The notes under the pieces: model-generated
Seen by the model: only the letters and a program-made list of their open reading frames with translations
Database searches by the model: none
What the model was told of the DNA's origin: nothing
Shown: positions 3,788-37,058 of the stretch, piece after piece
Layout of the letters: each line of letters starts with the position of its first letter
Numbering within the stretch: the first letter of the stretch is position 1
DNA from: Planctomycetota bacterium
GTDB taxonomy: Bacteria > Planctomycetota > SZUA-567 > H5-PLA8
Length of the DNA: 64,000 nucleotides
Reading direction: 5' to 3'
Assembly (NCBI GenBank): GCA_038227875.1
Contig: JBBRPR010000022.1
Coordinates: forward strand, 66,067-130,066
Made by a program: the position numbers and the translations under genes

Positions 3788-4231
3788 ATGCGCTTCAAAT
3801 TCCGACTGATCCGATTGCTCGAACTGCGCGACGCCGAAGTCGATCGCTGCGAAAAGGCGCTGGGTGTTGCAATTCAGGCGACGCAGGCTGCGACGATGGA
3901 TATGCACCGCAATCAGCGTGAACAGCGCGAGTTGGATCGAGCCTGGGCAGAAGCGATGAAGACCTCGATCACGGGCGCCACCCTCATGGATTTCAATAAC
4001 GAACGCCTGAAATTGTTCGCCGATTCGCAAATGCTCAACGACGCGCTGCTGAAATGCCGCCAGCAGGAAGATGTCTGCAAGAAGGAGCTCGAACGCGCAA
4101 TGGCCAAGCAGAAGTCGCTCCAAAAACTGGAGGCTCGCGCGCGGTTGAAGCACGAAGCGGCCGAACGACTGCACGAACAGAATCAATTGGATGAGTTTTG
4201 CGTCACCAGCACAGCGAGGAAGAGCGAATGA
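3788..4231 (+). CDS. fliJ: Flagellar export protein FliJ
   Basis: MRFKFRLIRLLELR N-terminus, coiled-coil composition, EQNQLDE C-terminal motif; follows fliI. Confidence 0.85.
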   Translation: MRFKFRLIRLLELRDAEVDRCEKALGVAIQATQAATMDMHRNQREQRELDRAWAEAMKTSITGATLMDFNNERLKLFADSQMLNDALLKCRQQEDVCKKELERAMAKQKSLQKLEARARLKHEAAERLHEQNQLDEFCVTSTARKSE

Positions 4232-4890
4232 GACACGGTTCTGGAAAAGCAATGGCGGTGGTGCTCTTCATCGTCGGAATTGCCGTCGGCCTGGCCATCG
4301 CCGTGGTTCCACGCGTGATGGGCAAGGACCTGTTCAAATCAATGGTGCCCGCGGAAGCTGCCGTCGCCACGAATCCCGATGAGAAGACCGAAGACAAAGC
4401 GGACGACAAAGATAAGTCGAAAAGCGGCGCCGCACCCATGGTACATCCGAAGGAAGTGGAACTGCGCCGCATGATCGCCGACGTCTCCAAGCAGCGCGCG
4501 GCGCTCGACGAACGCGAAAAGCCGCTCGCTGTGCGCGAAGCCAAGATCAAGCAGGAACTCACCGCGCTGGAAGAATTGAAGAAGCAGATTGAAGACAACG
4601 AAGGCAAATTCAAGAAGGACATCGTCGAAGTCAAGACCGACGAAATCAAAAACACAAAGAAGCTGGCCAAGATCTGGTCGCAGATGGAACCCAGCGAAGT
4701 CGCCAAGATTGCCTCGGGGATGGACGTCGAACTGGTCGCCAAGATTCTTGGCGCGATGACCGAACGCCAGGCGGCGACGATCATGGGCTCGCTCACCGCG
4801 CTGCCCGATGCAGGCAAGCTCGCACCGGAACTGATCGTGAAACTTAAGCAGATGAAGGTGGCCGCGCCGCCCGTCACGGAGGCCAACTGA
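4228..4890 (+). CDS. YlxF/FlbB/MotE-like membrane-anchored flagellar protein (TM, coiled coil, MgtE_N-like helical domain)
   Basis: N-terminal TM, charged coiled coil, then KKLAKIWSQMEPSEVAKI...ILGAMTERQAATIM. Position between fliJ and fliK matches Bacillus ylxF and Borrelia flbB. Confidence 0.75.
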   Translation: MRHGSGKAMAVVLFIVGIAVGLAIAVVPRVMGKDLFKSMVPAEAAVATNPDEKTEDKADDKDKSKSGAAPMVHPKEVELRRMIADVSKQRAALDEREKPLAVREAKIKQELTALEELKKQIEDNEGKFKKDIVEVKTDEIKNTKKLAKIWSQMEPSEVAKIASGMDVELVAKILGAMTERQAATIMGSLTALPDAGKLAPELIVKLKQMKVAAPPVTEAN

Positions 4891-11001: not shown

Positions 11002-11985
11002 ATGGCCAACCTGCTTTCTCAAAACGAAGTCGATACGCTGATGCAGGCCATCTCGTCGGGCACTGTTCCGGCGACCGAAGACAAGGCCAAGCAGCCCGTA
11101 AAAGTCCGCCGCGACGCCAAGCTCTACGACTTCCGCCATCCCGTCATGTTCCTCAAGGATCAGCTGCGCACACTGCAGATGATCCACGAGTCCTTCGCCC
11201 GCAACTTTTCCAATTCGCTGGCCTCGTACCTGCGCATGGGTGTGAAAGCCAAGTGCACCGGCGTCGACCAGATTTCCTACGGCGAATTCGCGCTCTCGCT
11301 GCCAGACCCCTGTACGATCGTGAACACCCGCTTCCATCCGTCCGAAGGCCGCACGCTGCTGGCGATTCATCCGGCCGTGGGCATCGGCGTAATCGATCGC
11401 GTCATGGGTGGAACTGGCGCGGGCGGATCGCTCAACAGGCCGTTTACGGAAATCGAACAGACCATCATCGATGAACTCGTCAACATGACGCTCCGCGACC
11501 TGGAACCGGCGTGGAACCGCATCTTGAAAGTCTCCTTCACCGCGGAAGCCACTGAACAGAGCACGCAGTTCATCCAGATCGCCAACATGGAAGACACCGT
11601 CGTCTCCGCGACGCTGGAAGTGAACTTCGCCGAGACCAGCGGCATCGTCAGTCTCTGCTATCCGTTCCGTTCGCTGAACACCGTTGCCGAACGTTTGAAC
11701 GCCAAGCATTGGGTTGAAGAAGAACAGAAGGCACAGGCCGCCAAGAGCAAGACCGCCGGCATGGCCTCGATCAGTCAGATTCCGCTGCAAATGGCTGCGA
11801 ACCTTGGTGTTGCGCACATCACCATGCACGACTTAATGCAACTGAAGAAGGGCGACGTGCTGCTGTTGAACCGCGAGATCGATCAACCGATTGAATTGGA
11901 AGTCGGCGGCAAGGTCCGTTTCACGGGACGACTGGGTGCGCGCCACGGTCATACCGCCGTACAGATTGAACAACGCTCGATGTGA
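11002..11985 (+). CDS. fliM: Flagellar motor switch protein FliM
   Basis: LSQNEVDTL CheY-binding peptide, YDFRHP, MGGTG, C-terminal SpoA domain. ATG at 11002 (ORF track starts at 10933). Confidence 0.95.
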   Translation: MANLLSQNEVDTLMQAISSGTVPATEDKAKQPVKVRRDAKLYDFRHPVMFLKDQLRTLQMIHESFARNFSNSLASYLRMGVKAKCTGVDQISYGEFALSLPDPCTIVNTRFHPSEGRTLLAIHPAVGIGVIDRVMGGTGAGGSLNRPFTEIEQTIIDELVNMTLRDLEPAWNRILKVSFTAEATEQSTQFIQIANMEDTVVSATLEVNFAETSGIVSLCYPFRSLNTVAERLNAKHWVEEEQKAQAAKSKTAGMASISQIPLQMAANLGVAHITMHDLMQLKKGDVLLLNREIDQPIELEVGGKVRFTGRLGARHGHTAVQIEQRSM

Positions 11986-12011: not shown

Positions 12012-12761
12012 ATGGGTAATGCCGTCGCCACCGATACGCTCAAAGCTCTGATCGTCGACCCCGACGAGAAGCGCGCGACCACGCTTGTAGATGCACTGAA
12101 GAACTGCGGCTATTCGCCCGTCACCGCCGAGGACGAAATGTCCGCGCGCATGTTGGTGGACTCCGAGAAATTCGACGTCGTGCTCTGTTACGACAAAGTC
12201 GCCAACGGCACGGTGATGGAGGTTTTAAAGAGCCTCCACGAAGCCAATCCGGATCTGCCGGTGATCGTGTTGAGCGACGATCCCAAATCACCGCTCATCG
12301 CCGATGCCATTAAGGCAGGCGCCATTGACTCTTATGCGACGTCGGAAAATTTAGCAGCGCTTTACCCCAAGCTGGCGGCGATTCAGGCTCAGCAGGAAGC
12401 GAAACACGAACATGCACATGCGCCTGCCCCCGCTGCGCCCGCCACGACGATTCATCCTGTCCGGTTGCCCCAATTGGGTGAAAGCGCCGCCAAGAACGAA
12501 CCGGCCAACGTCGACCTAATCATGGATGTGCCCGTGGCCGTGAATGCGATCCTGGGCAACACCACGATGCGGATTTCCGAGCTGCTCCAGCTCGGGCCCG
12601 GAAGCGTCATCGAACTCGATAAACGCGCCGGCGAACCCGTCGATATCTTCGTGAACGACAAGCTCATCGCCTTTGGTGAAGTCGTGGTCGTAAACGAAAC
12701 TTTTGGCGTGCGAATTACAGAAGTGATCGACCCCAAGCAGCGCATCCAAGCGCTCGCCTAA
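12012..12761 (+). CDS. fliN: Fusion of an N-terminal (pseudo-)receiver domain to C-ring protein FliN
   Basis: Residues ~10-125 have a REC pattern (ALIVDPD, FDVVLCYD, PVIVLS, AIKAGAID). C-terminus NVDLIMDVPV...GSVIELDKRAGEPVDIFVN...GEVVVVNETFGVRI is FliN. Confidence 0.88.
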   Translation: MGNAVATDTLKALIVDPDEKRATTLVDALKNCGYSPVTAEDEMSARMLVDSEKFDVVLCYDKVANGTVMEVLKSLHEANPDLPVIVLSDDPKSPLIADAIKAGAIDSYATSENLAALYPKLAAIQAQQEAKHEHAHAPAPAAPATTIHPVRLPQLGESAAKNEPANVDLIMDVPVAVNAILGNTTMRISELLQLGPGSVIELDKRAGEPVDIFVNDKLIAFGEVVVVNETFGVRITEVIDPKQRIQALA

Positions 12762-20584: not shown

Positions 20585-20980
20585 ATGTCGCAAGCCGTCG
20601 CCACTCCTCCAGCGCCAGCCCCTGCTACGGCAGCACCTGCAGCGCCACGCGTTTCAAACCCAAACGCAGCCGGTTCACTGGTCCGCGCGTTCGCTTCTGC
20701 TCCGAAGGGCGCTCCGCCCAAGCCCGTCGAAGAAGAAGCCCCACCCCCGGAACCGCGTTACAACCCCGTGGAGCTGGCGATTTTTCTGCGGCAGACCGTG
20801 CTGGTGATCTGTGCGATGGCGGCCGTGAGTTGCGCAGGCGCGGCGCGTTATGGCAACCGCAGCTGGTTGATGGCCGTGATGTGCGCCGCAGTCGCTGCAA
20901 TCGTCTCTGGCGTCATCGGCATGGCGCTTGCACGTAGTTTTGCAGAACATTGTTTGACCGAGGACACGCCCGTTAAATAG
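20585..20980 (+). CDS. Hypothetical two-TM membrane protein with Pro-rich N-terminus
   Basis: Fills the flhG-fliA gap in operon orientation; two hydrophobic segments. Confidence 0.65.
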   Translation: MSQAVATPPAPAPATAAPAAPRVSNPNAAGSLVRAFASAPKGAPPKPVEEEAPPPEPRYNPVELAIFLRQTVLVICAMAAVSCAGAARYGNRSWLMAVMCAAVAAIVSGVIGMALARSFAEHCLTEDTPVK

Positions 20981-21951: not shown

Positions 21952-22290
21952 GTGGCGATGAAAAACTCCAACGCTACCGACCGCCGGACAACCTACCGAC
22001 ACCACTGCAATTCTGTCTGCCAGGTGGGCCTCAACGCAGTCCTGCGCGACTTGAGTCTGGGCGGCGCGGCCGTCGAGCTCCCGTTTTGCGTGCCGCCGGG
22101 CGAACGGATTCTCCTGCGTATCTACGACAACGATCCCAAACTGCGAAGTGTGTCTGCGGAAGTGCTCTCCACCAGCGGCGGACGAGTGCATGCATATTGC
22201 ATGCACGTGCGCTTTTATAAGCTTCAGCCGGACGTGGAAAAAGCGCTGCAGCGCTACTTGCTTGCGCTGCAGGCGAATCGAGTGGCGTAG
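21952..22290 (+). CDS. Stand-alone PilZ-domain protein (putative c-di-GMP receptor)
   Basis: RRTTYR (RxxxR) and DLSLGG (DxSxGG) motifs. Confidence 0.85.
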   Translation: MAMKNSNATDRRTTYRHHCNSVCQVGLNAVLRDLSLGGAAVELPFCVPPGERILLRIYDNDPKLRSVSAEVLSTSGGRVHAYCMHVRFYKLQPDVEKALQRYLLALQANRVA

Positions 22291-22385
22291 GTTTTGGTGC
22301 GGGTCGAGTCGGTCAGTGAGCACGTTGTGTTGTGGTATGGACTGGACAGTGTCCGATTTCTCGGACGCTTGCATCGGCTGGTGTG

Positions 22386-22592
22386 TTAGTCGCAGACAAA
22401 GTAATCTTTATGGCCACAGACACATTCGTATTCGAATCCCTTCACAGCGCCGTTCTCTTTCTTCAGTGTCAGCTTGCCGAATTCAGAATGCTTTCCCATA
22501 GGCTGAATCAGGACCGGCTGCGTCGCCACGGTAACGGCGCTGGCCTTCAAGCAGGCGGTATTGCGGCGGATGATTGCGGTGCGATTTCCCAT
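22386..22592 (-). CDS. Small hypothetical protein with C-terminal CxCxH...C motif
   Basis: GGAG RBS before the ATG at 22592, an upstream sigma54-like motif, and C-terminus KGFEYECVCGHKDYFVCD. ORF track starts at 22616. Confidence 0.65.
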   Translation of the reverse strand: MGNRTAIIRRNTACLKASAVTVATQPVLIQPMGKHSEFGKLTLKKENGAVKGFEYECVCGHKDYFVCD

Positions 22593-22640
22593 TGTAAAAT
22601 TCTCCGAGGTGTCCATTCACTGCGTTCCGTAGTGTTACAT

Positions 22641-22656
22641 GGCAAATCAAAGGCCC
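22641..22656 (-). promoter_or_regulatory. Putative sigma54 promoter for the small Cys-motif gene
   Basis: Minus strand reads GGGCCTT-TGAT-TTGCC; GG-N10-GC spacing. Confidence 0.5.
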
Positions 22657-22719
22657 ATTTTCTCAGCAGTGCTCAGGCATTTACTGCACATCCATTTCCT
22701 AACGATTCCCCGCAGGTTG

Positions 22720-22735
22720 TGGCAAGAGGATTGCA
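22720..22735 (+). promoter_or_regulatory. Putative sigma54 promoter upstream of cheY
   Basis: TGGCAAG-AGGA-TTGCA, a near-consensus match. Confidence 0.75.
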
Positions 22736-22809
22736 ATCTGTTCGGTGTCCGGCAAGCGTCCTAAAGTGCCCGGAAAATTTTGCGGCTGCCCTACTCGGAG
22801 ATTTTCAAT

Positions 22810-23190
22810 ATGCGCGTTCTAGTGGTCGACGACTCCTCAACGATGCGGCGAATCCTCATCAACTGTCTGGCGAAGATCAAGGTGACCGACGTCGCCCAGG
22901 CAGGCGACGGCACCGAAGCGCTGACCGTGCTCGCCGCGCAAGGTCCCTTCGATCTGATGCTGACCGATTGGAACATGCCGCAGATGACCGGCATCGATCT
23001 CCTCAAGGCGGTGAAGGCCGACCCCAAGCTCACTGCCATGCCTGTGGTGATCGTGACGACCGAAGCGGAAAAGGAACGCATTGTCGAAGCGATCAAGTGC
23101 GGCGCGGCCAATTACATCGTCAAGCCGTTCACGCCCGAAACGCTGTACGAAAAGATCAAGAGCCTCGTGACGTTGCCCGCGCCGGCCTGA
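22810..23190 (+). CDS. cheY: Single-domain response regulator CheY
   Basis: VLVVDDSSTMRRI, DWNMP (phospho-Asp), VTTE and NYIVKPF. ATG at 22810. Confidence 0.9.
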   Translation: MRVLVVDDSSTMRRILINCLAKIKVTDVAQAGDGTEALTVLAAQGPFDLMLTDWNMPQMTGIDLLKAVKADPKLTAMPVVIVTTEAEKERIVEAIKCGAANYIVKPFTPETLYEKIKSLVTLPAPA

Positions 23191-23249
23191 ACGCGGGTCG
23201 GATCGGTCAACTGTGCGTCCTTAACAACGATGATTAAGGGAACCTGAAA

Positions 23250-24296
23250 ATGCTCAATTCGCTCCAGAACACCAAGGCGCCTTCGGCCACCGGCGCACCA
23301 TCGGCCGGCGGTGACTCTCACAAATCGATCGCAGTGGCGGAAACGCAGAATCCGCCCAAACGCAAACTGCTCCAACCCGACAGTTTCAACGAGGTCAAGC
23401 TCGCGGAGGAATTCCGCGAGTCCACGAAGAACTGCAAGGCAATGTTCGCGGATCCCTCGTTCGATCTGCCCATGCTGCCGACCTCCGCGGTGCGCGTAAT
23501 GAACCTGATCCAGGATCCCAACGCCTCGCCGAAAAAGATCGCCCACGCGCTCCAGACCGACACGGTGCTGACGGCTAAGTTCCTGCGCATGGCCAACTCG
23601 CCCTTCTATGCCGGCACGCGCGTGATCGACTCCGTCCATGTCGCCGTTGACCGACTGGGCATGGCCGTCACCAAGAATCTCGTCCTCAGTATTTCACTCA
23701 ACGGCACGATTGTGCGCGAAAAGCGCCTGGGTCACAGCGCCATGGGACTGTGGTCGCACGCCAACAACGCCGCGCTCGCCTCGCAGCTCCTGGCCCAGCG
23801 CCTGAGCATGCCACAGCAGGCCGCGTTCATGATGGGCCTGATGCACGACATCGGTAAACTCGCCGCGTGGGTCACCCTCAACAATATCCTGAGCAAGTAT
23901 CCTGGCGTTCGGCCTGGCGTGCTCGAAATGCTGGTCGAAGAGAGCCATCTGGCCATGGGCGATGCACTGCTGACGATCTGGAAGATGCCGCTGGAAGTTC
24001 GCGTCGCTGCCGGCGCGCATCACAACATCGAATCCCTCAATACCGCGATGCAGTACGTGCTCGAGGTCTGTCCGGAAGTCAACGTCTCCGATTGCTCGGC
24101 CGTCGCCTCCACTGCCGCTTGTGTGATGCTCGCCGATCGCGCCTTGGGTGCGCTGGGACTGTCCGATGAAGAACTGGAGCTGGATGTGACCCAGCTGGAA
24201 GTGGCTGAAGAGATCGGACTGTCTCAGTCGCTTTTGATGACGTACCTGTCTCAATTGCCGAAGTATCTTCAGGACAACACGTTCCAGGATAAATAA
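23250..24296 (+). CDS. HDOD domain protein
   Basis: LPMLP...D..LTAKFLRMANS, AVDRLG, LWSHA, GLMHDIGKL and WKMP...HH. Confidence 0.9.
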   Translation: MLNSLQNTKAPSATGAPSAGGDSHKSIAVAETQNPPKRKLLQPDSFNEVKLAEEFRESTKNCKAMFADPSFDLPMLPTSAVRVMNLIQDPNASPKKIAHALQTDTVLTAKFLRMANSPFYAGTRVIDSVHVAVDRLGMAVTKNLVLSISLNGTIVREKRLGHSAMGLWSHANNAALASQLLAQRLSMPQQAAFMMGLMHDIGKLAAWVTLNNILSKYPGVRPGVLEMLVEESHLAMGDALLTIWKMPLEVRVAAGAHHNIESLNTAMQYVLEVCPEVNVSDCSAVASTAACVMLADRALGALGLSDEELELDVTQLEVAEEIGLSQSLLMTYLSQLPKYLQDNTFQDK

Positions 24297-25646: not shown

Positions 25647-25684
25647 CGAACGCAGTGGTCACGAACTAAATTGGAGAACTACAC

Positions 25685-26467
25685 ATGATTCGCGCATTGA
25701 TGGCCGCCGCCAGCGGCATGCAAGCTCAGCAGATGAACGTGGACACGATCGCCAACAATCTCGCGAACGTGAACACCTCCGGCTTCAAGCGCAGCCAGGT
25801 GATGTTCCAGGACATGCTCTATGACACCATTCGCGCTCCGGGCGGCAATCAGGGCAACGGCGCCAAGACGCCCTCCGGCGTCCAGATGGGACTCGGCACG
25901 CGAATGGTCTCCATCTCCAAGGTCTTCACGCCGGGGTCGCTGCAGGTCACCAACCGCGATCTCGATGTGGCCATCAATGGCCAGGGCTTTTTCCGAGTTA
26001 AAATGCCCGACGGAACCCTCGCCTACACGCGCGACGGATCCTTCAGCAAAAACTCCGAAGGCCGCCTGGTCAACTCCGATGGTTTTGAAATCGACGGCAT
26101 CGACGCGCTTTCGCCCAACTCGACGGCCGTGACCATCTCTGGCAACGGCACCGTCTCGGAAGTCGTCAACGGCACCACCGCCGACAAAGGCCAGATCAAA
26201 CTCTACCGCTTCGTCAATCCGTCAGGCCTGCAGTCCCTCGGCCGCAACTTGATGCAGCCGTCGGCCGCCAGCGGCGATCCGCAGGAAGGCATTCCCAGCC
26301 AGGACGGCTTCGGCAGCCTGCAGCAGGGCACGCTCGAATCCTCCAACGTTCAAGTCGTCGACGAAATGGTGAACCTGATCGTCGCCCAGCGCGCGTACGA
26401 AATGAACACCAAGGCCGTCCAGGCCAGCGATGAAATGCTCCAGGCCACCAACAACCTGAAGAGGTAA
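25685..26467 (+). CDS. flgG: Distal rod protein FlgG
   Basis: IANNLANVNTSGFK...FQDMLY, AYTRDGSF and LESSNVQVVDEMVNLIVAQRAYEMN. Confidence 0.96.
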   Translation: MIRALMAAASGMQAQQMNVDTIANNLANVNTSGFKRSQVMFQDMLYDTIRAPGGNQGNGAKTPSGVQMGLGTRMVSISKVFTPGSLQVTNRDLDVAINGQGFFRVKMPDGTLAYTRDGSFSKNSEGRLVNSDGFEIDGIDALSPNSTAVTISGNGTVSEVVNGTTADKGQIKLYRFVNPSGLQSLGRNLMQPSAASGDPQEGIPSQDGFGSLQQGTLESSNVQVVDEMVNLIVAQRAYEMNTKAVQASDEMLQATNNLKR

Positions 26468-26473
26468 TCGACC

Positions 26474-27529
26474 GTGAAAATCTTCTCCACTGTCACACTG
26501 CTCTCTTTGGCGCTCGTCTCGTCCGCCCCGTCTCTCCGGGCGGGCGAGGCGGTGCTGGCCGAGCCGATTGCCGCTGTCGCGCCCGTCGCGATTCCGGCTT
26601 CCACTCTCTGCGTGACGCTGAAGTCCGACGCCACGTCGACGGACGAACAAGTTTGCCTCGGCGATGTCGCCCAGATCACCGGTGTCTCCGATGCGGTCGC
26701 GACAGAGATGTACAAGTTCCCCGTCTGCCGCGCGGCCAATCCGGGACAGGTTCGCACCGTCACCGTCTCGGATGTGCTGATCGCGCTCCAGAAATTCTCG
26801 AAGTCCAAGACGAAACCCGATTTGAAAGGCAGCGACGTCAAAGTGATGGCCTCCGCGGACGTCGTCAATGGTCCGCAGTTGGCTGAAGCCGCCGCGACGG
26901 CCGTGCGCAACGAACTCTCCAAAGACCAGGACTTCGACGTCCGCTGCGAATCCGTTGGCAACACCACCGACCAGATTATCCGCGCCGGCGCGTACGAACT
27001 GAGCGCCGATCTGCCTGAAGAAGGTGCGCGTCCTGGCAACCAGAGCGTCCGCGTGCGCATTCTGCAGAACGGAAAACGCGTCGCCGAGACGGTCTGCACC
27101 GTCAACGCGCACATCACCTGCACGATTCGCGTGGCTGCCGAGCACATTCCTTCGGGCGACGTGCTGGAAGCCAACGAAGTGAAATCGATCCGCAAGGAAG
27201 TCACAGCAAATGATCTCCGCGAACGCTGCGACGTGACCAAGCTCTACGGCATGCGCGCGCGCACATCGATCTCTGCCGGACAAATGCTGACACGCTCCGA
27301 ATTCGCCTTGCCGTTCGTGATCAAGCGCGGCGAGGCCGTCCACCTGACGGTCCGGCGCGGCGCGCTGGAACTGACCGCCACGGGACAAGCGCGCGGCGAC
27401 GCGGCGCTCGACGACCCGGTCCACATTTTTATCGCCGACAGCAACGCCGAAGTTGTGGCTCGCGCCTCCGGTTTGCGAGAAGCCTGCATGGACGATCCCA
27501 GCAACCCCAACGGCAAAGGCCAACGCTAA
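26474..27529 (+). CDS. flgA: P-ring formation chaperone FlgA
   Basis: Signal peptide, SAF-like region, VIKRGEAV...GALELTATGQA; lies between flgG and flgH. Confidence 0.85.
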   Translation: MKIFSTVTLLSLALVSSAPSLRAGEAVLAEPIAAVAPVAIPASTLCVTLKSDATSTDEQVCLGDVAQITGVSDAVATEMYKFPVCRAANPGQVRTVTVSDVLIALQKFSKSKTKPDLKGSDVKVMASADVVNGPQLAEAAATAVRNELSKDQDFDVRCESVGNTTDQIIRAGAYELSADLPEEGARPGNQSVRVRILQNGKRVAETVCTVNAHITCTIRVAAEHIPSGDVLEANEVKSIRKEVTANDLRERCDVTKLYGMRARTSISAGQMLTRSEFALPFVIKRGEAVHLTVRRGALELTATGQARGDAALDDPVHIFIADSNAEVVARASGLREACMDDPSNPNGKGQR

Positions 27530-27559
27530 ATTTTCCGTTCAAGAGAGGAACCTTCGACC

Positions 27560-28237
27560 ATGCGCACCGCCATTCTCACTCTGATCTCCACGCTGGCACT
27601 CAGCGGCTGTGTGGCGCCCAAGGGCCGCCCGACGGCCGCGACGCTGCCGCAGCCGGTCAAGATCATCAGCTCGCCATCGGTCGTCAGCGATGGTTCGCTC
27701 TGGCAGGCCGATGCCCGCAACGATAATTCTCTGACCGGAGACATCAAAGCGCGCAACAAGGGTGACATCGTCACCGTGCTCGTGATTGAAAAAGTGAACG
27801 CCTCCCACACACGCAATACCGCAACGAATAAGACACAGGGAACCGACGCCTCCGCGTCGCAGTTCTTCTTCCCCGGCGTGGGCACACTGAAAGGTGCGAC
27901 ACCGAACCTCAGCTACAAGTCGGCACGAACCTACGCCGGCGGCGGTACGGTGACCGATTCGAATACCGTGACGGCGACCGTGAGCACCCAGGTGGTCGAA
28001 GTGCTGCCCAACGGAAATCTGGTCGTCAGCGGGTCGCGCGAAGTCACGCTCTCCGGCGAAGTCCAGACCGTCACTCTCACCGGCATCGTCCGCGAACACG
28101 ACATCGCGCCCGATAACACCGTGCCGTCCACCGCGCTGGCAGAAGCCCGCGTCCACATCGCCGGTGCAGGCCCGCTGGATGACGCGCAGAAGCGCACCCA
28201 GGTCGCCCGCCTGCTGGACTGGGTCAACCTCTTCTAA
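27560..28237 (+). CDS. flgH: L-ring lipoprotein FlgH
   Basis: Lipobox LSGC, GDIVTVLV, VVEVLPNGNL and GIVR..DI..DNTV.S. Confidence 0.93.
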   Translation: MRTAILTLISTLALSGCVAPKGRPTAATLPQPVKIISSPSVVSDGSLWQADARNDNSLTGDIKARNKGDIVTVLVIEKVNASHTRNTATNKTQGTDASASQFFFPGVGTLKGATPNLSYKSARTYAGGGTVTDSNTVTATVSTQVVEVLPNGNLVVSGSREVTLSGEVQTVTLTGIVREHDIAPDNTVPSTALAEARVHIAGAGPLDDAQKRTQVARLLDWVNLF

Positions 28238-28273
28238 TTCACTCACTCTCGCGACAGAGAACGGACGGTGGCC

Positions 28274-33722: not shown

Positions 33723-36700
33723 ATGAACCGTGCATTTGCCAAGACCTTCCGCCAAAACGTCGACCTTCGAGCTGAATCCGCGATACAAATTTACAATACC
33801 GCCGTCAACGCGCAGAAGCGCGGACGGGTGGATGAAGCTCTGCTCGGCTACCGCAAGGCGCTGAGCATGAAGCCGACGTTCGCGCCGGCGATGCACAACC
33901 TCGGCCGCATCCTCTCCGACCGCGGCAACTACGAAGAAGCGATCAAGATTTTCGAGAAGGCCATCGCCATTCTCCCCAACGACGCCGACATCCAGAACAG
34001 CCTGGGCATCGTCTACAAATCCGTTCACCGTTTCCGCGACGCGCTGAAGTGCTTCCAGACCGCCGCCGACCTGAAACCCGAATTCGTCGGCGCGTACAAC
34101 AACATGGGCACGACGCTCGACAGCATCGACAAGCACGAAGAAGCGCTGATCTGCTACCGCAAGGCGCTCTCGATCGATCCCACCTACCCCGACTGCTACA
34201 ACAACATCGGCGTGGCGCTGAAGAAGCTCTCGCGCCTCCCTGAAGCCGTCGCTGCGTACCAGAAAGCCATTGAGTACAAGCCCGATTACGCCGAGTCCTA
34301 CAACAATCTCGGCGGCATCTATAAGGAACAAGGACGCTGCGACGAAGCCCTCGAGATGCTGCGCAAGGCCATCTCCTTCAAACCGCAGTCGGCTGAAATG
34401 CACTCCAACATTCTCTTCACCAGCCATTGCTTCCCCGGCTTTACGCCGGAGGTCATCTTCGAGGAACACAAGAAGTGGGGCGTCAAGCATTCGCCGGCGG
34501 ACATGGAAGCCAAGTCGCACGCCAATATCCCTGATCCCAACCGGCGTCTGCGCGTCGGCTACGTCTCACCGGACATCCGCGACCACTCCTGCGTCTTCTT
34601 CCTCGAACCATTGATCGGCGCGCACCACCCCGACCAGGTTGAAACCTTCGCCTACGCCGAAGTGCCCAAGCCCGATTGGAAGACGGAAGTGATGAAGAAG
34701 CTCTTCCACAATTGGCGCAGCACCATCGGCATGTCACACGACGCCGTGGCTGAAATGATCCGCCGCGACCAGATCGACATCCTGGTGGAATGCGCCGGGC
34801 ACACCAGCAACAACCGCCTGCTGACGCTGGCGCGCAAACCCGCGCCAATCCAAGTCACCTATCTCGGCTACCCCGACACCACCGGCATGCACGCCGTCGA
34901 CTACCGCATCACCGACGCCATCGCCGATCCGGAAGGCGCTGAAGCGTTCCACACCGAAGAAGTCGTGCGTCTGCCCGGCGGATTCCTCTGCTTCAAAGTT
35001 CACGACGACGCGCCGGCCGTCGTGCCGCTCCCGGCCAAGGTCAAGGGCCACGTCACCTTCGGCTCGTTCAACGTGATTCACAAGCTCTCGCGCGAAGTGA
35101 TCGAACTCTGGTCGCGCATTATTCTCAGCGTTCCGGGCTCCAAGATTTCGCTCAAAGCCAACGCCTTCTCCGACAAATTCACGCGCGACCGCTACATCAA
35201 CATGTTCGGCGAATTCGGCGTCACCGCCGACCGCATCAACATGCTCGCGTGGGAACAGGCACGCTTCAACCATCTCGGTCTCTACGGCGATGTCGACATC
35301 TGCCTCGATCCGTTCCCCTACAACGGCACGACGACGACCTGCGAAGGCATGTGGATGGGCGTGCCGCTGATCACGCTCAACGGCAACATCCACGCCTGTC
35401 GCGTCGGCGCCAGTCTACTCTCGCGCGTCGGTCTCGAAGAATTCATCTGTCAGTCGAAAGAAGAATACGTCCAGAAAGCCGTCGCGATCGCCACGGACAC
35501 CAATCGCCTGGAACAGATCCGACTGTCGTTGCGTGGCAAAATGGCCAAGAGCACGCTCTGCGATGCCGACAAGTTCGCGACGTCCATCGAAGAGAAATAC
35601 CGCTGGATGTGGCAGCGCTGGTGCCAGAAGCAGCAGGAACGCGGCAACGTTCCCACCGCGACCTATACCGCGCCCGCACCGATCATCGACCAGAGCACCC
35701 TGGCGAAAACTCCGCAATCGTACGTCCAAGAATTGACGAACCTGCTCGGCAAACCCGCCGCCACGACGACGCCCCCTGCTCCGACCCCAGCGGTCGCGCC
35801 CGCTCCCGCGCCGGTTGCAGCCAAGCCCGATTCCTCTGCCTCGACGGCAATCTCGAATCAAGCCCTCGTCATCGGTCGCGTCGCGGAACTCGCGCTCCTG
35901 GCTGACGGCATGGCGCGCTTCGGACACTATTCTTCGGCCGCGCAGTACGCGAGCCAGGGTTTGGCCAACTTGAAGCGCGGCCAGTTCTCCGGCGGCTTCC
36001 CGCAGGCGCTGCTCTCCAGTTGCAACGCACCCACGATCGAAGGCGTTTTCCTGCGCCAATGCATCGAATTCAGCGCGCACTCCAGCTTCCTCGCGCGCGA
36101 ACAGTACAAGGACTGGGTAATCGCGTGGGCCAAGCTCGAACCGAACAACCCCGAACCGTTCCTGCGCTTCGGTCTGCTCTTCGCGCTCTTCGCGTTAAGC
36201 CGCGGCGTGGCCATCTCCCGCACCGCGTTGGAAACGCTCGATCACGCGCGCCGCATCCAGACCGATGTCCGCCCCACCCTCGCGCTGCAACTGTGCGAAG
36301 GAAAGCTTGAAGAACTCCAGCTCCCGTATTTCGGCAGCACGCTCCACCTGTCCAAGGACCTCACGAATCTCAGCACGTTCGTGATGCTGGAACGGGGCGA
36401 CTGGTACGAACCGGAGCTCGATTTATTCCGCAGCCTCGTCCGCCCCGGCGATCGTGTGCTGGACGTGGGCGCCGCTGTCGGAGTCTACGCGTTCGGAGCC
36501 GCCCCCTTCGCAGGCGAGCAGGGCCGCATCCTCGCCATCGAAGCCGATTCGCGTAACGCCGCGCTGCTCCGCAAAACCGCCGCCCAACACGCGACCGTGC
36601 AGATTCATGAACTGGCCGTCAGCGACCACGAAGGCATCGGCCGCCTGCGCGCCGGCGACACGCCGGAATTCTCAGAACTCGTCGACGGAGAAGCCGAAGG

Positions 36701-37058
36701 AAAGCCCGTGCAGTTGAAGACCATCGACCAGGTCCTGGCTGCCGCTGGACTGGAAACGGTCGACATGCTGAAACTCGACATCGGCAACGGCGCGCTCCAA
36801 GCCATCGCTGGCGCCGAAAAAACGCTGAGGTCGGGCGCCCCCATCGTCATCTACGACGCCCGCGACGGCAAGAAACTGCGCACCGACCTGATCGCGAAGT
36901 TCAAGGATTTTGGCTACGAGAGCTACGTCTTCTCTCCGTTGCGCCGCATCCTGGAACGCTACACCGAAAAAACCGACGTCGACCCCTTCACCCAGAACCT
37001 GGTCGCGTTGAAGCCTGAGGCCCTCGACCGCTTCCAGGGAGTCGTCGCCATCGCATAA
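33723..37058 (+). CDS. TPR repeats + OGT/SPINDLY-like GT41 glycosyltransferase + FkbM-family methyltransferase fusion
   Basis: About 6 TPRs (YNNLG-type). GT41 motifs RLRVGYVSPD..DHS, KPAPIQVTYLGYPDTTG, FGSFN..HK and LDPFPYNGTTT. C-terminal VLDVGA.VGVY...AIEA...LKLDI. Confidence 0.88.
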   Translation: MNRAFAKTFRQNVDLRAESAIQIYNTAVNAQKRGRVDEALLGYRKALSMKPTFAPAMHNLGRILSDRGNYEEAIKIFEKAIAILPNDADIQNSLGIVYKSVHRFRDALKCFQTAADLKPEFVGAYNNMGTTLDSIDKHEEALICYRKALSIDPTYPDCYNNIGVALKKLSRLPEAVAAYQKAIEYKPDYAESYNNLGGIYKEQGRCDEALEMLRKAISFKPQSAEMHSNILFTSHCFPGFTPEVIFEEHKKWGVKHSPADMEAKSHANIPDPNRRLRVGYVSPDIRDHSCVFFLEPLIGAHHPDQVETFAYAEVPKPDWKTEVMKKLFHNWRSTIGMSHDAVAEMIRRDQIDILVECAGHTSNNRLLTLARKPAPIQVTYLGYPDTTGMHAVDYRITDAIADPEGAEAFHTEEVVRLPGGFLCFKVHDDAPAVVPLPAKVKGHVTFGSFNVIHKLSREVIELWSRIILSVPGSKISLKANAFSDKFTRDRYINMFGEFGVTADRINMLAWEQARFNHLGLYGDVDICLDPFPYNGTTTTCEGMWMGVPLITLNGNIHACRVGASLLSRVGLEEFICQSKEEYVQKAVAIATDTNRLEQIRLSLRGKMAKSTLCDADKFATSIEEKYRWMWQRWCQKQQERGNVPTATYTAPAPIIDQSTLAKTPQSYVQELTNLLGKPAATTTPPAPTPAVAPAPAPVAAKPDSSASTAISNQALVIGRVAELALLADGMARFGHYSSAAQYASQGLANLKRGQFSGGFPQALLSSCNAPTIEGVFLRQCIEFSAHSSFLAREQYKDWVIAWAKLEPNNPEPFLRFGLLFALFALSRGVAISRTALETLDHARRIQTDVRPTLALQLCEGKLEELQLPYFGSTLHLSKDLTNLSTFVMLERGDWYEPELDLFRSLVRPGDRVLDVGAAVGVYAFGAAPFAGEQGRILAIEADSRNAALLRKTAAQHATVQIHELAVSDHEGIGRLRAGDTPEFSELVDGEAEGKPVQLKTIDQVLAAAGLETVDMLKLDIGNGALQAIAGAEKTLRSGAPIVIYDARDGKKLRTDLIAKFKDFGYESYVFSPLRRILERYTEKTDVDPFTQNLVALKPEALDRFQGVVAIA

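Follow-up and report, generated by a model that had tools for sequence, protein, structure and literature searches.

A receiver-fold domain built into the flagellar rotor protein FliN in a family of uncultured Planctomycetota

In the textbook case, flagellar switching is brought about by a diffusible response regulator, phosphorylated CheY (CheY-P), that acts on a fixed rotor, and the known elaborations of this rotor consist of a phosphatase (FliY) or of extra docking peptides. A gene present in 64,000 nucleotides of a Planctomycetota bacterium (assembly GCA_038227875.1, contig JBBRPR010000022.1, positions 66,067 - 130,066 of the forward strand; this whole stretch is referred to as the window) raises the question whether a receiver domain can be part of the rotor itself, and what such a domain would do there once its phosphorylation residues are lost. 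The gene encodes FliN, a protein of the motor's cytoplasmic ring (C-ring), with a receiver-fold (REC) domain at its N-terminus. This protein, named REC-FliN below, is real, conserved, rare and, as far as searched, undescribed. The gene and the parts of the encoded protein are as follows:

12012..12761, + strand: REC-FliN gene, open reading frame (ORF) of 249 amino acids plus stop codon, the only fliN of the genome
12000..12004, + strand: Shine-Dalgarno sequence GGGAG, 7 nt 5' of the ATG, read from the sequence
12039..12410, + strand: pseudo-receiver domain, residues 10-133, (beta-alpha)5 fold (Pfam, AlphaFold2, Foldseek, alignment)
12411..12452, + strand: disordered His/Ala/Pro-rich linker, residues 134-147 (AlphaFold2, alignment)
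12453..12758, + strand: FliN part, residues 148-249, with an N-terminal arm (HPVxLPxL) and the SpoA/FliMN_C domain

The initial annotation of the locus had described a REC-fold domain, a His/Ala/Pro linker and an intact FliN domain, a composition on which Pfam, TIGR02480, AlphaFold2 and Foldseek agreed. In a hidden Markov model scan, Response_reg (PF00072; 35.8 bits, cut-off 30.2, E 1e-8) matched residues 13-106 and FliMN_C (PF01052; 94.9 bits, cut-off 23.8) matched residues 169-239, both above the Pfam cut-offs. The NCBIfam model TIGR02480 for fliN scored 106 bits versus a cut-off of 84.05, and residues 152-248 aligned with the solved FliN structures of Salmonella and Thermotoga (E 1e-24 to 1e-25). 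The AlphaFold2 model, for which 38 family members served as input, displayed residues 10-133 as a succession from beta1-alpha1 to beta5-alpha5, with predicted local distance difference test (pLDDT) values of 82-89 over residues 11-110 and of 71-72 over residues 111-130, followed by a disordered segment (residues 133-165, pLDDT <50). Confidence was lower for the FliN domain, as is expected of a monomer from an intertwined dimer. Foldseek placed the N-terminal domain among solved receivers, with template modelling scores (TMt) of 0.84-0.91 and, for CheY, of 0.85 at 25-26% identity. In addition, a weak match to the FleQ-type receiver (PF06490) was obtained, at 21.5 bits versus a cut-off of 22 (E 3e-4).

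The receiver is degenerate. Residue states were read from an alignment with the canonical CheY of the window (22810-23190) and with intact relatives, and every point of the degeneracy put forward earlier was found back there, namely the DPD pocket, the Tyr at the site of the phospho-Asp with an Asp shifted by one, and the replaced Lys-Pro. Indeed, the acidic pair DD of CheY corresponds to D16-P17-D18, so that the second metal-binding Asp is lost (P17), and C59-Y60-D61 stands where CheY has T-D-W, with Tyr aligned to Asp and D61 shifted by one position. The Lys-Pro site after beta5 reads T110-S111 in REC-FliN versus K-P in CheY. The Thr/Ser site at the end of beta4 is present (S88). The domain hence has the fold and the beta4 Ser/Thr of a receiver, and lacks the phospho-Asp, the metal-binding pair and the Lys; judged by these residues, it would be unable to take up a phosphoryl group by standard chemistry. 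The receiver is separated from the FliN arm by a His/Ala/Pro-rich spacer of 22 residues (Q125 to H148).

An assembly artefact can be set aside as the origin of this fusion. A contig of an independent public run is identical over positions 12193-12476, which span REC, linker and the start of the FliN arm, and an independent metagenome contig with 90% nucleotide identity contains a single open frame over residues 76-249. The public runs X3 and X4 cover short parts of the stretch only, and no RNA run was among the public runs listed for it. REC-fliN is located between fliM and fliO and starts 26 nt past the fliM stop codon (11983-11985). Whereas it had been called the only fliN of the window, this could be extended to the 9.34-Mb genome (88% complete), in which PF01052 gave just two matches, the FliM C-terminus and REC-FliN. 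REC-FliN is therefore the FliN of the organism, because of its domain scores, its alignment to solved FliN structures and this genome-wide count.

Some irregular sequences were met around the same junction. A 194-nt contig of an independent run (4x coverage) showed a C>A change at position 11976 and, after position 11981, a 4-nt insertion immediately ahead of the fliM stop codon; these changes represent either sequencing error or real variation. In the protein P0036 (248 amino acids; 87% identity across 40% of the query), the gene call starts in the FliM C-terminus and extends through the first half of the REC; it probably stems from an indel-ridden assembly. The short forms P0035 (154 amino acids) and P0124 (148 amino acids), which start inside the REC or comprise the FliN part only, may be calls shortened at contig ends.

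A census of proteins that join a receiver to FliN retrieved 43 distinct REC-FliN sequences from a single phylum, all of them metagenome-derived and from uncultured Planctomycetota. Among the best 120 matches listed from 5.8 billion protein clusters, at least 38 proteins (235-287 residues, 36-91% identical, that of the window included) possessed both Pfam domains, and further ones were added from a search of 40 related genomes. The sources annotate them only as 'flagellar motor switch protein FliN [Planctomycetota bacterium]'. Within the family to which the window belongs, a FliN match was obtained in seven of 17 genomes (its own included), and REC-FliN was the form found in all seven; the REC-FliN query gave no FliN match in the other ten genomes of the family, nor in three genomes of the order's other families. 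Plain FliN of about 134-170 residues was present in 18 of the 21 genomes from the class's other families. Of 401 genomes sampled evenly across the phylum, 197 yielded a FliN-type match at E <= 1e-15; among the matches listed, which comprised all but 48 weaker ones, four were full-length, all from the window's family, and no other began before query residue 76. In six candidates with a match start before residue 101 (G372, G129, G151, G389, G302 and G148), the N-terminus proved to be Ala/Pro-rich or EIDAL-bearing, and a REC was absent. When 1.84 billion representatives at 50% identity were searched with a profile, at least seven full-length REC-FliN proteins aligned in a single stretch (P0009, P0030, P0037, P0132, P0134, P0135 and P0140) were among the best 150 matches listed, the remaining rows being multi-receiver proteins and plain FliN. 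Because multi-receiver proteins swamp these best 150, the figure is a lower bound rather than a census, and unrelated receivers that were joined to FliN independently could lie below rank 150. Similarly, a scan of genome contigs gave one full-length relative (L003, identical to G006) among the matches listed, which plain FliN dominated. The ESM Atlas returned generic receiver clusters only, with scores of 0.87-0.88, under the 0.9 mark, which are to be read as leads only.

The ten genomes of the family without a FliN match (G001, G003-G005, G008-G010 and G014-G016) in part share genera with genomes that contain REC-FliN; either flagella appear to be patchy within genera, or the metagenome-assembled genomes (74-95% complete) appear to be incomplete. 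Two other architectures came up during the searches. One ESM Atlas cluster consists of 53 proteins of about 251 amino acids with a receiver and a CheX domain (PF00072 100%, PF13690 92%), is commonest in Planctomycetota and represents another receiver joined to a part of the chemotaxis pathway in this phylum. The wide profile search also contained P0144 (405 amino acids), in which a TIR domain (PF13676, 73.8 bits) at the N-terminus precedes two FliN-type SpoA domains (PF01052, 144.9 bits in two stretches), and beside it the fragment P0200; such a TIR-SpoA-SpoA protein is unusual and may have nothing to do with flagella.

The 43 proteins differ in the state of their receiver. All five signature residues (DD, D, T, K-P) are kept in six of them, which belong to three genera of the window's family. 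The degenerate forms number 35, that of the window included, and two more have degenerated separately, keeping DD with Pro at the Asp site and Glu or Gln at the Lys site. None of the 35 degenerate forms has the second acidic residue, the phospho-Asp or the Lys, and their phospho-Asp position is occupied by Q (22), H (5), N (3), Y (2), K (2) or C (1). Two further intact representatives, P0132 and P0140, came from the wide profile search. The intact REC-FliN of the sister genera (G002, G006, G007 and G012; P0038, P0039, P0132 and P0140) have the same architecture, family and clade as the protein of the window and the same operon slot, fliM-[REC-fliN]-fliO. They differ from it by the DD, D, T and K-P that they keep and by their Response_reg scores (94-106 bits versus 35.8 bits), and they too are labelled just 'FliN'. 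At the other extreme, the REC of the divergent member P0134 falls below Pfam detection.

Three plain FliN proteins from the same class served as the root of a maximum-likelihood tree, in which all fusions formed one clade versus plain FliN, with a Shimodaira-Hasegawa-like approximate likelihood ratio test (SH-aLRT) value of 99. The intact and the two separately degenerate forms constituted one clade (SH-aLRT 98), and the 35 degenerate forms were compatible, weakly, with a single group (SH-aLRT 62). The position of the root within the fusions is insecure, because long branches meet there, as the tree program warned. The fusion that gave REC-FliN took place a single time, in the ancestor from which the flagellated members of the family descend. 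Once lost, a complete receiver active site would hardly be expected to come back, so that in the simplest history a working receiver was fused to FliN a single time and its chemistry then disappeared on at least two occasions. Since the sister genera keep all residues of the phospho-chemistry, their FliN very probably is a genuine response regulator.

In the degenerate forms, the fold, the alpha5 / alpha1-beta2-loop surface and three acidic residues of the pocket are under purifying selection. Comparison with the 90%-identical strain revealed 18 synonymous and no nonsynonymous codon changes in residues 76-133 of the REC, the same numbers in the FliN domain (residues 166-249), and 11 synonymous and four nonsynonymous changes in the linker and arm (residues 134-165). 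Across the 35 degenerate forms, mean pairwise identity amounted to 44% for the REC, 28% for the linker and 73% for FliN. The most conserved residues of this clade lie away from the old active site. In the alpha1-beta2 loop these are C32 and G33 (both 100%) and N31 (94%); in alpha5 they are L117, K120 and L121 (all 100%), Q125 (97%) and P119 (94%), making up the patch L117-x-P119-K120-L121-A-A-x-Q125. P119, Q125 and C32 are specific to the degenerate clade. The pocket itself contains D at position 16 in 31 of the 35 forms, D/E at position 18 in 30, and a derived D/E at position 61, beside the lost phospho-Asp, in 33, where intact forms have Met, Leu or Gln; Ser/Thr occurs at the beta4 site (88) in 19. 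Across the family, the spacer from the alpha5 Gln to HPV varies from 9 to 41 residues, is Ala-rich and contains the disordered linker.

What the receiver displaced can be read from related lineages. In the class's other families, FliN has 134-167 amino acids and an N-terminal xQ(E/D)(E/D)IDALL-type peptide in all 17 proteins examined, some with two copies; these plain FliN proteins (L090-L092 and L104-L117) thus start with one or two EIDAL-type peptides, and several FliN of other classes of the phylum (L099, L100, L102 and L103) also bear one. An EIDAL-type motif was not found in residues 1-20 of REC-FliN. The REC stands where the ancestral protein had a docking peptide of the EIDAL type, which it replaced. 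The fliM gene beside REC-fliN keeps an N-terminal peptide of this type in all seven loci, with LSQNEVDTL in the window. The EIDAL motif of FliM binds CheY, and such motifs are sporadic in FliN/FliY (PMC6946799). For FlhG, binding to FliY has been reported in B. subtilis, and binding to FliM in monotrichous species (PMC12826062). As far as its sequence indicates, a plain planctomycete FliN would offer docking sites for CheY or FlhG besides those of FliM.

Several known systems can be set beside REC-FliN. The N-terminal domain of FleQ (PF06490) is a receiver fold without working phospho-chemistry, which is kept for protein-protein contacts. Unlike FleQ, REC-FliN attaches the domain to a rotor protein instead of an AAA+ transcription activator, and its PF06490 match remains below the cut-off. 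FliY is the nearest characterised relative of REC-FliN. In two papers (PMC12826062, PMC6946799), FliY of B. subtilis and Thermotoga is described as an EIDAL peptide, a CheC-like phosphatase domain and a SpoA domain. Like FliY according to these sources, REC-FliN is a SpoA protein of the C-ring with an N-terminal chemotaxis or two-component module, is encoded beside fliM and replaces plain FliN. Unlike that of FliY, its module is a receiver fold, with neither a CheC-like domain nor an EIDAL peptide. The absence of a FliY-type CheC-like domain, already supposed in the initial annotation, agrees with the lack of any PF04509 or PF13690 match and with FliY models that stay under their cut-offs; the FliY model NF005995, for example, matches the FliN part only (profile positions 255-376; 134 bits versus a cut-off of 218).

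With diffusible CheY at the switch, as in the clockwise C-ring of Salmonella (PDB 8wiw), REC-FliN has in common a receiver fold at the C-ring and a FliM docking peptide that is kept. It differs from CheY in that the REC is tethered to FliN and is devoid of the phospho-Asp, one metal-binding Asp and the Lys. In Salmonella, alpha4-beta5-alpha5 of CheY grips the FliM N-helix, and alpha1 and loops touch the FliM middle domain (PMC11528121). By analogy, the conserved surfaces of alpha5 and of the alpha1 end would resemble, in general kind, the FliM-contact surfaces of CheY. The Cle proteins of Caulobacter are likewise reported to be CheY-like domains that act on the flagellar switch, with cyclic di-GMP (c-di-GMP) as input (PMC5677366). 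They are free proteins, unlike the receiver treated here, which is part of FliN. The architecture had been noted as unfamiliar from characterised motors, and this impression stands: a full-text search of about 8.4 million papers and preprints, a body that does not include subscription journals, gave no description of a receiver-FliN protein, although a passing mention in a table is possible. Similarly, a review of the flagellar motor (PMC7355467) mentions neither 'receiver' nor such a fusion.

It is proposed that a response-regulator FliN became, in the lineage of the window, a phosphorylation-independent docking or regulatory module on the C-ring, a proposal with about an even chance of being right. 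The ancestral protein would have been a response regulator with the rotor protein itself as its output domain. In the present-day protein, the receiver-fold domain is tethered to the FliN N-terminus through the flexible linker. FliMC:3FliNC forms a spiral in the 34-mer ring of Salmonella (PMC11087270), and if this ratio of 1 FliM : 3 FliN holds, about 100 REC copies would be present per motor. The REC module may bind a partner from the motor or from chemotaxis, with the FliM N-peptide, the FliN/FliM core, a neighbouring REC, free CheY and FlhG as unranked candidates, and this contact may tune switching bias or C-ring assembly. The initial annotation had likewise considered that such domains could set motor bias, dock the neighbouring CheY, HDOD or PilZ proteins or compete for the FliM N-peptide. 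A complex prediction that paired the REC (residues 1-135) with the N-terminal residues 1-45 of FliM, run without controls, scored 0.00 in both runs and counts neither for nor against the FliM N-peptide. More speculatively, the Glu/Asp beside the lost phospho-Asp in 33 of the 35 forms may hold the REC in an 'on-like' state that mimics the phosphorylated one. The genome codes for three CheA-type kinases, 16 methyl-accepting chemotaxis proteins and two CheC/CheX-type matches, in addition to the canonical CheY of the cluster; given this full chemotaxis set, the pseudo-REC adds to the diffusible pathway and does not substitute for it. CheY-like matches were found in three of five genomes compared, both intact and degenerate REC-FliN types being among them. 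A bolder version, possible but doubtful, considers REC-FliN as a motor-resident two-component element. In the genera with an intact receiver, the C-ring itself would then be phosphorylated by a kinase or phosphorelay, and the switch would read a signal without diffusible CheY; the window's form would be hard-wired 'on-like', its pseudo-receiver, frozen by the acid beside the lost Asp, setting the motor default or gating the access of free CheY-P to the FliM peptide.

Several observations weigh against a docking or regulatory module on the C-ring, in particular one that works as CheY does. When the intact receiver of a relative was compared with that relative's genome and with the genome of the window, five NtrC-type sigma54 activators came nearest (36-41% identity, E 5e-23 to 7e-20; Pfam confirmed their architecture), versus just 34% identity (E 2e-10) for the CheY of the window. 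The best NCBIfam matches of this intact receiver were receivers of the NosR-family, AtoC, NtrC, RssB, GlrR and FixJ type, and no CheY model occurred among the best 25. The REC of the window shows the same leaning to the NtrC side, together with its sub-threshold FleQ match. Being nearer to the NtrC type than to CheY, the receiver is not CheY by descent, and 'tethered CheY' is a functional analogy at best; a CheY-like use of the FliM N-peptide becomes less plausible for the same reason. Of the tethered CheY-like domains envisaged in the initial annotation, the covalent tethering holds and the kinship with CheY does not. Furthermore, the REC evolves faster than FliN (44% versus 73% identity), as a looser scaffold domain also would, and the selection test spans residues 76-249 in one strain pair.

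Four rival explanations were ranked, in the order of an architectural role, a surviving non-canonical sensor, FlhG-dependent assembly and a functionless relic. REC folds often dimerise, and in a purely architectural role the domains might pack on each other or on the FliM_C:FliN3 spiral. This would suit a conserved alpha5 / alpha1-beta2-loop patch that is remote from the phospho-site, the weak FleQ-type match (21.5 bits versus 22), the loss of phospho-chemistry in 35 of the 43 proteins, and the accessory C-ring mass that FliY adds in other lineages (PMC6946799). However, the disordered linker and the spacer of 9-41 residues fit a mobile tethered domain better than a fixed element of a lattice, relatives retain a fully intact receiver, and a mere brick would need neither the acidic pocket that was kept nor the new acid beside the lost Asp; the architectural role is considered unlikely. 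The same pocket is an argument for a domain that is still a sensor, in which D16, D18, D61 and S88 would bind a metal or small ligand, or the shifted Asp/Glu or Tyr60 would be phosphorylated. Acids are present at positions 16, 18 and 61 in 31, 30 and 33 of the 35 degenerate members, 19 have the beta4 Ser/Thr, and the intact relatives show ancestral signal reception. Yet the phosphoryl-stabilising Lys and the second metal-binding Asp are missing from all 35 and Tyr60 occurs in just two; as the residue at the phospho-Asp site varies (from Q in 22 to C in one), no single chemistry is conserved there, and a remaining sensory role seems distinctly improbable.

Assembly or number control would follow if the REC had replaced EIDAL as a handle by which FlhG, a MinD-like ATPase, or FlhF recognises FliN-containing building blocks of the C-ring. 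The REC is located exactly at the site of the EIDAL-type peptide of sister families, flhF and flhG belong to the same cluster, 6-8 kb downstream, and the reported partners of FlhG are FliY, in B. subtilis, and FliM, in monotrichous species (PMC12826062). However, FliM keeps its EIDAL peptide in seven of seven loci, so that FlhG would still have that handle, and a link between REC and FlhG derives solely from the analogy with FleQ; this explanation is considered very unlikely. The view that the REC has no function, being a decaying remnant or an artefact of assembly or gene calling, can invoke the lost catalytic residues, the low Pfam score (35.8 bits versus 94-106 for the intact relatives) and the REC of P0134 that Pfam does not detect. 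It hardly deserves credence in view of the absence of nonsynonymous changes against 18 synonymous ones in the compared part of the REC (residues 76-133), the frames that are open in all 35 degenerate members at pairwise REC identities of 27-91%, the confident fold model, the identical independent contig that bridges the junction, and the separate metagenome contig with the same open frame.

REC-fliN forms part of a large flagellar cluster. Its neighbours with a bearing on switching are:

11002..11985, + strand: fliM, 327 amino acids from the ATG at 11002; CheY-docking peptide LSQNEVDTL encoded by 11014-11040
21952-22290: PilZ gene, flanking CheY (49.2 bits)
22810..23190, + strand: canonical single-domain CheY-type receiver with DD, D, T and K-P complete; an interaction with REC-FliN is not implied
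23250-24296: HDOD gene, flanking CheY (146 bits)

The cluster opens with fliF, fliG, fliH, fliI, fliJ, an unnamed ORF, fliK, flgD, flgE, motA, motB and fliL. It continues with fliM, REC-fliN, fliO, fliP, fliQ, fliR, flhB, flhA, flhF, flhG and a second unnamed ORF; flhF and flhG are those found 6-8 kb downstream of REC-fliN. Its last part comprises fliA, PilZ, CheY, HDOD, flgM, flgG ... flgI, flgJ, another unnamed ORF, flgK, flgL and fliW. The PilZ, canonical CheY and HDOD genes occur in a row (21952-24296) between fliA and flgM and encode possible motor regulators, with c-di-GMP and phosphorylation as their likely inputs. Just downstream of flgL-fliW, positions 33723-37058 code for a protein of 1111 amino acids with TPR repeats, a GT41 (O-GlcNAc-transferase-like) domain and an FkbM methyltransferase domain, a candidate flagellin-modifying enzyme. 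The ORF between fliJ and fliK (4198-4890, 230 amino acids) has a weak MgtE_N/FliG-like match of 20.1 bits, under the cut-off, and that between flhG and fliA (20585-20980, 131 amino acids) is Ala/Pro-rich, probably membrane-bound and without a Pfam match. Between flgG and flgI (25650-28270), where flgA and flgH are expected, a crude ORF pick gave two minus-strand frames with a lower third-position GC content (0.61-0.64) and no Pfam match; the real genes of this region are probably on the + strand.

The novelty of REC-FliN resides in a receiver domain that is itself part of a rotor protein, which amounts to either a new accessory domain of the C-ring or a new output of response regulators. Because all sources name these proteins plain 'FliN', an annotation gap has to be added. 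Moreover, intact and fossilised versions are found side by side within one family. If the intact forms are phosphorylated, the C-ring would be the direct output of a two-component pathway, and the degenerate forms, for which a phosphorylation-independent docking or regulatory module is proposed, would then reveal a role of the receiver fold at the motor after phosphorylation had been dispensed with. Should the motor-resident two-component element prove true, the flagellar motor would have a signalling input of a new class, whose forms make up a natural series, active at one end and fossilised at the other. The sister genera with an intact receiver may harbour the more striking biology, the protein of the window being the fossilised end of the series. 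The family as a whole points to an undescribed wiring of signals directly into the flagellar motor.

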